Assembly (NCBI RefSeq): GCF_013167455.1 | Contig: NZ_CP038332.1 | Direction: 5' to 3' (one strand) | DNA from: Escherichia coli O157:H7 | Lineage (GTDB): Bacteria > Pseudomonadota > Gammaproteobacteria > Enterobacterales > Enterobacteriaceae | Length of the DNA: 64,000 nt | Shown here: piece after piece, positions 37,001 through 40,000 of the stretch | Numbering within the stretch: position 1 is the stretch's first letter | Layout: every line of letters begins with the position of its first letter | Made by a program: the position numbers

Positions 37001-40000
37001 TAGCGACAACCTAAAATGTATTTTGATGTTGTTATATAAATTAATGTATTCGGTGGTGCATCCAATTAGTAGAACATGTGTTTTTCGATAAACGCTCCGA
37101 TCACTTTTTCGTGGATCTCAACTGAGCGTGAGAAGCAGATGGTTTTACGAGTCAACCGCTTAATGCGGGTGCGTAGCGTCAGATTATTACGCTCAATGCG
37201 TTGGGTGAATATTTTGCCAGCACGTTATCACCGAACATCTCTCCCCCAGTCGGCGAACCCTTTATTGGACGTCAGCACAATGCTCGCTTTTTCATATCGA
37301 CGGTTCAGCAACCGGAAGAACAGACTGTGTTCCTGCGTAAAGCGCTGCTCCGGTGTCTTCCTGAACTGGCGAAGCAACATGGAACGGCCACCGGTATAAC
37401 CCATCGCTTTGATTTCCGCCAGGATAACTTCGCCGTTCCAGACATTCTCAGCCAGACGCATGTCGATATAGTCCATTTCGGCCATTTTGTGGCGTGTTTT
37501 TCTGGCCGGAGGTTCTGGGTATTTCAGGTAACGTCTGACCGTTCGTTCAGAGCAACCAATCTGAGTCGCAATATCAACAATATACGCACCTTGCTGGCGC
37601 ATTTGCTTTATCATGTAAAAGTCCTCTCTGCTCAGCATGCTGATGTCCTTTCTGGTGTGAGAACCTCAAGGAAACAACATGTTGGGTGGAGCGGACAATC
37701 CAAATGGTGAATTACCGTCTTATATCACTGGCGGATAAGGATAAGTACACGTCGGCAGTTCCGTCAGCACTGCGACAGCGTTGTCCTCGTTGCTTTTACC
37801 CGGTCATGCACAACGCCTGATGGATGAACTGCGTGCCCAGGGTTACCATTTTAAAGTAAAAACCGTGACGGAAAGCCTGCGCCGTCACGGACTGAGGGCA
37901 AAAGCTTCCTGGAATTTCAGTCCGGTCTGTTACCGCGCACACAGCCAGCCTGTGTCAGAAAATCTGCTGGAGCAGGATTTTTACGCCAGTGGCCCGAACC
38001 AGAAGTGGGCGGGAGACATCACATATTTACGTACGGATGAAGGCTGGCCGTATCTGGCTGTGGTCACGTGCCATTATTGGCTGATCAATGTCGTCACGCA
38101 TGACGGCACAGGAGCCCCCGGAACGTTATGCTACCGCATGTCATTTGCAAAAATGACAGATAGATATACTTCAATTTGAATCTTAACAATTAGCATGGGA
38201 ATGTTGTCAATCCTCTGTATGGAGCCACCACATATTGCAATTTTTGTTCTCTTTTAAAATATATTCCACGAGCGTCTTGTGGGACCTTTTGCTGTTATAG
38301 GGGGGCAGTTTGGATATCGAAAATTATTGTACGTTAAGGCTGAATTTCAATCGCAAAGCATAACCTTACCTTTCTGCTTACTTATGCAGTTCAAAGAGTA
38401 CCAACTCTGCAATTTTCGTTGCCACAGATGCAATATCGTTACTTTCCAGTCACCATGCCGCTGAAAGCCCACACCATGCGATAATCCACATCAAGAGCCG
38501 CTTTCTGTCCAGACCCGCTGTTGTGAGGTGTGAGGTGTGAGGTGTGAGGTGTGAGGTGTGAGGTGTGAGGTGTGAGGTGTGAGGTAGCCTGAGTTTAACG
38601 GACAGGCCGATGAAGGACGCCGTTACCGGGATAATGTAAGAATCTTTTTTTGAGTATGTCAACATAACCTGAGGCAAAGTACCTCAGGTTCCAGTAATCA
38701 GCCGACCTGACAGTCTTCTGTTAGCCCTACAGATATGTCGTGTAGCTAACCGCGCATGTCAAAGCCGGATTTTTGAAAATCTCTATAAACTTCCGGATTG
38801 TTGAAGGCCGGGAATTTAGCTTTATGGGCTGCTGACTTTATCGCTTCGCAATAGGCTTTATCGCCATTACTGGTTGATATTTTTAACGCCGTGCCATCCC
38901 GGGAGAATTCCATATGCAACCTGCATTTTTTCCTTTTCCATTTTTGCGGATCATCAAGTTTAGCATTAATTGCATCCCTGATTCCCCGTGCCTGCTCCCC
39001 CCATTCATCCTGATCATCCCAACGTCCTGAACTGCAACTACCCAGGGCTGTAGTTTTATGGCAATTTGAAGGATGTAATGGCGCACATCCCGCCACAAAG
39101 CTGACTAAAATAGCCAGTATAACGATTTTCTTTACCCCCATATATTGCTCCTCAACCCATATAGATCTCAGTACCATAGCTCTGTCAGAGCAAAGAAAAT
39201 CTTAACTAATACAAGTTAAGATTTTTAATATCCACTCCTCATCCCTACATTCCAGGTGATGGTGGCGTCCACTCATTATCCTGAACTGGAGCATAAGATG
39301 CGCCATGCCCCCCGGATATGCTTTTCTGTTGCCTGATATATTCGTGGTAGTACTGTTCACTACGCTGACGATGTAAATCCACATCCGGGCGGCTGATTAC
39401 AAAGTGTCCATTTCCGGTTATTCCAGCTGCATTATGCCAGGCCACCATTTCCGCAAATACATCATTAAACTGTTGATATGAGCCTTCCGGTTCAAAACCC
39501 ATTCCTGGCTCACGATCAAACAATACAGGAGCAATCAGATTCAGCTTATCCACCAGTTCATTTCTGTCCTGATGATGGTAGAACACCACACGGTCCCCAT
39601 AATCCACACAGACTAACTCGCCATTCCTCCGATCACGAAAACGCACACTGCCATCTTTCTGCAGACGGGCTTCGAGAACGCCAGTGTCTTCATAAAGTGG
39701 AGTTCCTCCCGGTTCACAGAGAATCACGCAGCGGTCGGCATTCGTTGTTCGTCGCTTGTCTTTGCGACGATCACGATAATCCCAGCCACGTAACTGTGAT
39801 AATGCAGCTCTGTCTCCCTGTACCGCCTGTTGCTCCACCCACTGCCGGTAGGACAAAGGATACCACTTACCCTCCTCAATCAGTGACAACCGCTCTTCCT
39901 TCACACTCTCCTTCAGCCTGATCAGCGCCTGCATACGCTGCACTTCCGCAATATGGTAATGCAGCTTACGCAATTGTGGATCCCGGAACTGCACACGGAT

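Follow-up and report, generated by a model that had tools for sequence, protein, structure and literature searches.

What use a mobile element may have for a single, detached domain of TolA is the question raised by a small gene on the pO157-type plasmid of Escherichia coli O157:H7. The gene lies on the minus strand at positions 38746-39141 (stop codon included) of a 64,000-nucleotide stretch of this plasmid (contig NZ_CP038332.1, assembly GCF_013167455.1), referred to below as the window. According to the list of open reading frames (ORFs) and the sequence, it encodes a lipoprotein of 131 residues. From length, mass and lipobox ('VAGC31A') we identified the product as L7092 of pO157 from strain EDL933 (YP_325652.1, WP_001453090.1, UniProt O82913), which is recorded with 143 residues and 16.1 kDa. 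A first-pass annotation, made from the DNA sequence alone, had noted that the C-terminus of the protein resembles TolA domain III (TolAIII), the common gateway of group A colicins and filamentous phages, and knew of no described function for such a protein. Our searches of the full-text literature agreed with this statement, as they found no functional study of L7092.

The homology itself is not new. Hundreds of records annotated by the NCBI Prokaryotic Genome Annotation Pipeline (PGAP) name the product 'cell envelope integrity TolA C-terminal domain-containing protein', and the PGAP record carries an inferred Gene Ontology term for bacteriocin transport. The relationship is also present in Pfam and in PHROG, where family 5772 ('unknown function') matched residues 4-131 of L7092 over profile positions 1-128 of 128 (E=5e-60). 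The protein has already been seen by mass spectrometry as well: shotgun proteomics of O157:H7 strain 86-24 detected L7092 and listed it as a lipoprotein, 'uncharacterized protein', with the location 'L (IM or OM)' (PMC3210124). A remark on an EDL933 'TolA' tail fibre (PMC11125564) concerns a different gene and was set aside. What appears to be undescribed is a family of lipoproteins and secreted proteins on plasmids and prophages that consist of an import hub only, and a role of such proteins as decoys at the point of entry.

TolA domain III as the sole folded domain of L7092

Profile, sequence and predicted fold confirmed that L7092 contains TolAIII as its only folded domain. The Pfam profile TolA_C (PF06519) matched residues 44-125 (E=5.1e-14, model positions 10-92 of 96). 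A phmmer search of all PDB chains returned only TolA domain III entries (1S62, 3QDP/3QDR, 2X9A, 1TOL and recent full Tol complexes), with E-values of about 3e-8 and an ungapped alignment over residues 50-129. The domain, as delimited by the profile, the PDB search, an AlphaFold model and Foldseek, comprises residues 45-131 (38749-39009, minus strand). In the AlphaFold2 model, which was built on a family alignment of 47 sequences, the predicted local distance difference test scores (pLDDT) of these residues were mostly at least 95, with means of 90-98 over blocks of ten residues. Foldseek superposed the predicted model on the TolAIII structure 3QDP with a root-mean-square deviation (rmsd) of 1.1 Å over 85 residues and a target-normalised template modelling (TM) score of 0.91. 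The next hits were 2X9A_B, 3QDR_A and 1TOL, followed by remoter TolA domains and then by TonB C-terminal domains. The first-pass annotation had made its proposal depend on a significant profile match and on a predicted structure like that of TolAIII, and both were obtained. The homology that it had noted by eye is far above chance; its extent had been underestimated, being about 85 residues and not about 60.

The elements of the model (helix 46-61, strands 72-79 and 85-93, helices 95-107 and 116-122, strand 124-130) follow the alpha-beta-beta-alpha-beta order of E. coli TolAIII (3QDP, 1S62, 1TOL, 2X9A), with which L7092 shares about 32% identity as well as the fold. The disulfide cysteines C363 and C388 of TolAIII correspond to C73 and C98 of L7092, which are invariant in the family alignment. 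Unlike TolA, L7092 has neither domain I, the inner-membrane anchor that is coupled to TolQR, nor the helical domain II. The NCBIfam equivalogs for TolA were matched below their cut-offs (TIGR02794 with 45.2 bits against 59.45, NF007065 with 53.8 against 213), and at their C-terminal ends only (positions 280-356 of 362 and 273-382 of 387, respectively). Also unlike TolA, L7092 is encoded on mobile DNA outside the tol-pal operon. Its neighbours are a truncated relaxase gene (nikB') and insertion sequence (IS) remnants in the window, nikB and trbC in the I-complex, and in prophages Q and the lysis genes.

The first 19 residues, MGVKK-IVILAILVSFVAGC (39085-39141, minus strand), have the features of a lipoprotein (signal peptidase II) signal: a basic n-region (MGVKK), a hydrophobic core (IVILAILVSF) and a lipobox (VAGC) of the form [LVI][ASTVI][GAS]C. 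Most family representatives likewise have a lipobox. Cys19 (codon at 39085-39087) is the predicted lipidated N-terminus, and alanine at position +2, together with the absence of aspartate, implies sorting by the Lol system to the outer membrane, where L7092 would be lipid-anchored at the membrane opposite to that of TolA.

The ORF is intact on the minus strand, and the strong ribosome-binding site of the first-pass annotation can be read as a Shine-Dalgarno sequence, GAGGAG (39148-39153, minus strand), with 6 nt between it and the ATG at 39139-39141. PGAP and GenBank annotate a longer form of 143 residues that begins with an ATG at 39177, but its twelve extra codons (39142-39177, minus strand) are preceded by no good Shine-Dalgarno sequence and are unconserved in homologues. 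When the DNA was aligned with the copy of an I-complex plasmid and with two chromosomal homologues, from Citrobacter and Enterobacter, conservation started at about the Shine-Dalgarno sequence and the ATG of the 131-residue form and stopped exactly at the stop codon. The Citrobacter and Enterobacter copies keep the Shine-Dalgarno sequence and the start, but not the sequence further upstream. We therefore prefer the start of the first-pass annotation; the twelve extra codons are probably untranslated.

Between the lipidated cysteine and the domain lies a tether, residues 20-44 (39010-39084, minus strand; APLHPSNCHKTTALGSCSSGRWDDQ), which is of low confidence in the AlphaFold model (pLDDT about 54-60). 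The tether contains an extra pair of cysteines, C27-x8-C36, with no counterpart in TolA, and these may form a disulfide. The surrounding motif, PLHPS-x-C-HKTTA-x-GSC-SSGRWDDQDEWG, is kept in plasmid, prophage, Citrobacter, Enterobacter, Klebsiella and Erwinia members, and is absent from TolA and from those lipoproteins that mimic TolA more closely.

Purifying selection on L7092 is strong, with dN/dS (ratio of nonsynonymous to synonymous substitution rates) of about 0.1. Pairwise values among the plasmid, prophage, Citrobacter and Enterobacter copies were 0.06-0.12. For the last 40 residues, which comprise helix 95-107 and the beta3 strand, dN/dS was 0-0.025 at dS of 0.6-1.4, and residues 92-131 are identical in the plasmid and prophage copies despite a dS of 0.72.

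Carriers of the family

L7092 DNA is present in 614 plasmids of PLSDB, and about a quarter of the complete E. coli genomes (1274 of 5426), including O157:H7, carry a close homologue. In E. coli, 548 placements are on plasmids, at identities of at least 99%, and 825 are on chromosomes, at about 88%.

The prophage context was established from two inspected chromosomal places and from phage mEp460_ev081. The gene order in these lambdoid prophages is Q antiterminator, tRNA-Ile/Arg, a TolAIII lipoprotein of 142 residues, the L7092 homologue, holin, lysozyme and Rz. The tandem pair of lipoprotein genes (L013:6421-7395, L012:6589-7395 and L011:6422-7396) occupies the slot that is held by stx in Stx phages; in L012 its first gene is a pseudogene. 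The partner of the L7092 homologue, annotated 'tolA' (WP_000506934.1), has the lipobox IIGC, matches Pfam TolA_C with E=5e-23, is 61% identical to E. coli TolAIII and ends with ...VLDFKP. By consensus matches only, a promoter-like site was located 30 nt ahead of the pair and a terminator-like hairpin behind it. In its layout the pair looks like an autonomously transcribed accessory insert ('moron').

An analogue was found on clinical Klebsiella plasmids of the ColRNAI type (cloacin/klebicin-type Col plasmids). These plasmids, of about 10-12 kb and described as cloacin-like (PMC10269471), encode a colicin-like bacteriocin (with an annotated tRNase domain) together with E3-type immunity and lysis genes. 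Beside the bacteriocin operon stands the gene for a 123-residue, TolAIII-only lipoprotein (lipobox LTAC), which overlaps by 4 bp the start of the gene for a 121-residue protein with a signal peptide and a TonB C-terminal domain (TonB-CTD) only (Pfam TonB_C, E=1e-10). On the 10-kb Klebsiella pneumoniae plasmid NZ_CP082038.1 the pair lies at L009:5902-6635. The pair has had a passing mention as TolA and 'TolB family' genes of a cloacin-like plasmid, the second name standing for the TonB-CTD gene, and no function was given (PMC10269471). TolAIII and TonB-CTD are the two periplasmic hubs that group A and group B bacteriocins, and several phages, need for import, and a plasmid with a separate copy of each next to its bacteriocin genes suggests a connection with this step.

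The prophage partner and the Klebsiella TolAIII lipoproteins (123 and 144 residues) share with L7092 the plain layout of lipobox, linker and TolAIII, and their carriers are of similar kinds: an accessory slot of prophages, Col plasmids and large conjugative plasmids. They differ from L7092 in being closer mimics of TolAIII and in lacking the Cys-x8-Cys tether, and are only 26-32% identical to it.

More distant members occur on mobile elements as well as on chromosomes. A 50%-identical Klebsiella member of 133 residues was found on IncFII plasmids and in Tn3 and IS110 contexts. Two small genes, of 133 and 102 residues and without Pfam hits, follow it in every case (L021-L023:8583-9424), and the three may form a cassette that is conserved across mobile backgrounds. 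Lone chromosomal genes for proteins with 80-87% identity to L7092 occur in Citrobacter, Enterobacter kobei, Serratia and Raoultella, and their neighbours vary by genus. In Enterobacter cloacae, a member with 43% identity has a fixed place between ompW and the trp operon. A search of 1.84 billion cluster representatives returned about 110 hits, many of them proteins of 120-150 residues with an LxGC-type lipobox and TolAIII only; most of the distant representatives lie on contigs too short to inform on context.

A possible decoy for TolA ligands

Known binding interfaces of TolAIII were mapped on L7092 through the ungapped alignment, in which residue i of L7092 corresponds to TolA residue i+290. 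The beta3 strand of TolA (APLDFK, 415-420) is the site at which g3p, colicin N and the N-terminus of TolB add a strand; backbone hydrogen bonds are made at D418 and K420, and proline substitutions abolish binding (PMC4339652). The aligned strand of L7092 is SGFDMR (125-130). D128 takes the place of D418 and R130 that of K420, the flanking hydrophobic residues are retained and proline is absent, so that the hydrophobic-Asp-hydrophobic-basic pattern of TolA is kept. TolA binds colicin N with an affinity of about 1 µM, and TolB with one of about 40 µM (PMC4339652).

The explanation that we favour, tentatively and with a probability just short of even, is that L7092 may be an outer-membrane-tethered, energy-uncoupled competitor for TolA ligands, which would confer tolerance to Tol-dependent bacteriocins or phages. 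From the inner leaflet of the outer membrane, to which the lipid anchor and Ala +2 would direct the protein, the tether of about 25 residues would keep the domain near the exits of porins and receptors and near TolB-Pal, upstream of TolA on the import route. There L7092 would offer its beta3 edge and helix for strand addition by the TolA-binding segments of colicins, the N1 domain of filamentous-phage g3p (g3p-N1) and the TolB N-terminus. Because domains I and II are absent, L7092 cannot couple to, or be energised by, TolQR. It would pass on no proton-motive force, and a captured ligand would be stuck in a dead-end complex. Cells with L7092 would be expected to tolerate Tol-dependent (group A type) bacteriocins and possibly also filamentous phages that are specific for pili, and Tol-Pal would suffer to some degree if L7092 also captures TolB. 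The affinities published for TolA suggest that such a competitor could titrate parasites and yet spare much of the TolA-TolB cycle.

The decoy proposal gains support from the lack of domains I and II, from the distribution of the family on mobile elements, and from the pairing of TolAIII with TonB-CTD on bacteriocin plasmids. On this reading, L7092 would be cargo of use to the bacterium in which the plasmid or prophage resides, and not a part of the conjugation machinery. That it is dispensable cargo is indicated by its absence from the IncI1 plasmid pESBL, its destruction in the conjugating plasmid pMS7163B and its retention on a pO157-type record that is typed as non-mobilizable.

Engineered proteins provide a precedent for competition by a hub domain cut from its energy coupling. 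Levengood-Freyermuth, Click and Webster reportedly found in 1993 that soluble TolAIII in the periplasm renders E. coli colicin-tolerant and leaky, and Howard et al. are said to have shown in 2001 that periplasmic TonB-CTD blocks TonB-dependent uptake. Like these fragments, which compete and block the import of colicins or phages, L7092 is a hub domain without the coupling parts. The fragments were soluble, overexpressed laboratory constructs, whereas L7092 is a natural protein of a conserved family, with a predicted lipid anchor and a predicted effect. A natural parallel exists in the exclusion lipoproteins (Llp of T5, Cor of phi80, HK022 and N15 acting on FhuA, TraT, and Bor of lambda with Iss of ColV, a lipoprotein that phages and plasmids share). 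These are also small accessory lipoproteins of the outer membrane encoded by prophages and plasmids, and their protective effect comes from closing a route of uptake common to phages and colicins. They have no relation to L7092 in sequence or fold and act on the outer-membrane receptor, whereas L7092 would act one step further in, as a mimic of the translocation hub in the periplasm.

Taken more widely, the analogues might belong to a so far undescribed, broad-spectrum entry immunity on mobile elements of Enterobacteriaceae, in which detached hubs (TolAIII as a lipoprotein, TonB-CTD as a secreted protein) intercept bacteriocins and possibly the pilot proteins of phages. This generalization is more speculative, and we regard it as doubtful at present. 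Its members would be L7092 of pO157 and the I-complex, the tandem pair of the prophages and the TolAIII-TonB-CTD pair of Klebsiella. Resistance is usually attributed to loss of receptors, to tol mutations or to specific immunity proteins. If the decoy proposal is true, it would add a horizontally acquired, broad-spectrum layer of tolerance acting at the translocation step, with a bearing on bacteriocin and phage therapeutics, on colicin ecology and on how far Tol-Pal tolerates a competitor. As a sub-case we keep the idea of a dedicated defence of I-complex plasmids against the I-pilus phage If1, whose g3p binds TolAIII (PDB 2X9A). It was demoted from a candidate in its own right because IncI1 plasmids are without the gene, while pilus-less pO157 and prophages carry it.

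Several observations weigh against a decoy role. The colicin A site of TolAIII consists of LLDIKP (375-380) and the cation-pi lysines K368, K379 and K396 (PMC3365938). In L7092 these contacts are lost, the lysines being replaced by E78, S89 and H106 and LLDIKP by ALKIST, and a role as a decoy for colicin A is therefore unlikely. L7092 may also bind another ligand, as it is only about 32% identical to E. coli TolAIII. A fusion in the style of 1TOL, in which a Gly-rich linker joins M13 g3p-N1 to residues 40-131 of L7092, was modelled with the family alignment. The AlphaFold prediction was not 1TOL-like (rmsd 14.7 Å) and agreed with 1TOL in the TolAIII half only; N1 was itself poorly modelled (pLDDT 30-55), and as a run without a TolAIII control the prediction does not tip the balance. 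No defence family of PADLOC-DB matched L7092 or the Klebsiella analogue at E<=0.01, and the window shows no consensus promoter directly upstream of the gene. Finally, the Enterobacter cloacae and Citrobacter members are fixed, lone chromosomal genes among housekeeping genes, and such copies fit an ordinary role in the envelope as well as they fit defence.

Such an ordinary role, with a ligand unrelated to colicins and phages, would make L7092 a diverged adaptor of the TolA/TonB fold that came onto mobile elements by hitch-hiking; the Cys-x8-Cys tether might then help to bind a partner in the outer membrane or associated with peptidoglycan. It would account for the low identity to TolAIII and the lost colicin A site, for the conservation of a tether motif specific to the family, for the many distant members that are lone chromosomal genes among housekeeping genes, and for the lack of a PADLOC match. 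We nevertheless consider it rather unlikely, as hitch-hiking hardly explains the repeated, independent capture by lambdoid prophages, the I-complex, IncFII plasmids of Klebsiella and Col plasmids, or the pairing with TonB-CTD beside a bacteriocin operon. A different account takes L7092 for an antagonist of Tol-Pal, which captures the TolB N-terminus or another partner of TolAIII and loosens the link between outer membrane and peptidoglycan. The resulting leakage, vesiculation or lysis would serve the release of phage, toxin or bacteriocin, and colicin tolerance would be a side effect at most. Periplasmic TolAIII reportedly causes leakiness, and the beta3 strand to which TolB binds is kept in L7092. 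The inspected prophage copies stand downstream of Q and just upstream of holin, lysozyme and Rz, in the late transcription unit and the stx slot, and the analogue on Klebsiella Col plasmids adjoins the bacteriocin lysis gene. Hypervesiculation of tol mutants (PMC7969528) counts in the same direction, and if L7092 does weaken Tol-Pal, this would matter for vesiculation and for the release of toxin or phage. Release is, however, difficult to reconcile with production of L7092 in non-induced O157:H7 cultures from a plasmid without a lysis context, or with strong purifying selection on a fixed, lone chromosomal gene in Enterobacter and Citrobacter. The promoter-terminator unit of the prophage pair implies expression in the lysogen, where chronic envelope damage would be costly, and TolA binds TolB so much more weakly than colicin N that parasites would be titrated before TolB. 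We therefore assign a low probability to antagonism of Tol-Pal too.

Two further explanations start from the surroundings of the gene in pO157. According to the first-pass annotation, L7092 lies in the leading region, beside a '657-aa repeat protein' just downstream of hok, and would enter a recipient early in transfer; expressed there, it might protect the new host during conjugation. The window does have hok, psiA, psiB and ssb at no more than about 2.3 kb from the gene, but this proximity stems from deletion or recombination. As detailed below, gene and neighbour form a fragment of I-complex origin, whose native place is on the opposite side of oriT. Moreover, the window lacks nikA, the nikA-proximal oriT and the 5' end of nikB, and a near-identical pO157-type record (L001, IncFIA/FIB/FIC) is typed as non-mobilizable. 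Protection at early entry is thus very improbable. Even less credible is that L7092 of pO157 is a decaying remnant without function. Its setting of pseudogenes and IS fragments (nikB', the remnants at 37076-38179 and a variable 7-bp repeat) would suit this view, but the ORF is intact in hundreds of plasmids, is held at a dN/dS of about 0.1 and yields a protein seen by mass spectrometry.

An I-complex fragment in pO157

The 657-residue neighbour of L7092 proved not to be a repeat protein. It corresponds to residues 247-903 of the 903-residue NikB-type relaxase of pO104_H21, with 99% identity, and is encoded by a 5'-truncated pseudogene (nikB', 39245-41218, minus strand). What is left of this I-complex relaxase gene (NikB, MOBP) is the 3' two-thirds, without the 246-residue catalytic N-terminus, and the product matched NCBIfam TraI_MobP_relax at profile positions 175-494 only. 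As the neighbour is a NikB remnant, L7092 is not a native leading-region gene. In blastn, positions 38596-41266 formed one block with 98.8% identity to pO104_H21 (IncK2/Z, MOBP, MPF_I). The block delimits a 2.67-kb island of the I-complex (IncB/O/K/Z type) that holds the lipoprotein gene and nikB'. The flanks of the island, with hok and psiA on one side and IS remnants and toxB (27450-36959) on the other, have no match to pO104_H21, and the adjacency to hok arises at the junction at 41266.

Both pO104_H21 and pMS7163B have trbABC first, followed by the lipoprotein gene, nikB and nikA (all three on the opposite strand), by oriT and finally by the leading region. The native position of L7092 is thus behind nikB, with oriT between it and the leading region, at the end that is transferred last. 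By this synteny, it was a rearrangement that brought L7092 close to hok, psiA and psiB in pO157. On the same grounds, a role of L7092 as an anti-defence gene of the leading region was rejected.

A role of L7092 in the IncI-type type IV secretion and transfer machinery was rejected as well. The homologue is absent from the IncI1 plasmid pESBL, where the gap between nikB and trbC measures only 36 bp, and it is disrupted in pMS7163B (NZ_CP026855.1), which conjugates. The copy in pMS7163B, gene 00720 (L003:5584-6081), has lost its last 25 residues or so and has about 47 unrelated residues instead; after ...KSAA the sequence is replaced by an IS91/sul2-dfrA14-aph(6)-Id island. pMS7163B has served as a conjugation-proficient model for transposon-directed insertion-site sequencing, in which 00720 had a log fold change of +0.39 and insertions were neutral (PMC10286972). 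Since this copy was already broken, the value is uninformative on the intact gene and shows only that conjugation needs none. The nikB-trbC junction, judged from pMS7163B, seems to be an insertion hotspot for cargo.

We also note some minor features around the gene. A scan of the window for consensus promoters and terminators around L7092 found nothing upstream of the gene. Between the stop codon of nikB' and L7092, a perfect 8-bp inverted repeat (TCTTAACT ... AGTTAAGA, 39200-39221) with a 6-nt loop is followed by a T-rich run on the coding strand. It was overlooked by the consensus scan because its stem is AT-rich, and it could be a weak terminator of nikB or an operator. Between toxB and L7092, degenerate IS and transposase fragments on both strands (37076-38179), among them an IS21-type istA-like N-terminus and an IS3-type orfB-like piece, border the island. 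At the left edge of the island, about 160 bp downstream of L7092, a perfect 7-bp tandem repeat, TGTGAGG, is present in 9.1 copies (38522-38585). Match offsets at this repeat among pO157 records were 23, 44, 51 and 58, and these steps of 7 or 21 bp suggest that the copy number varies between pO157 strains.

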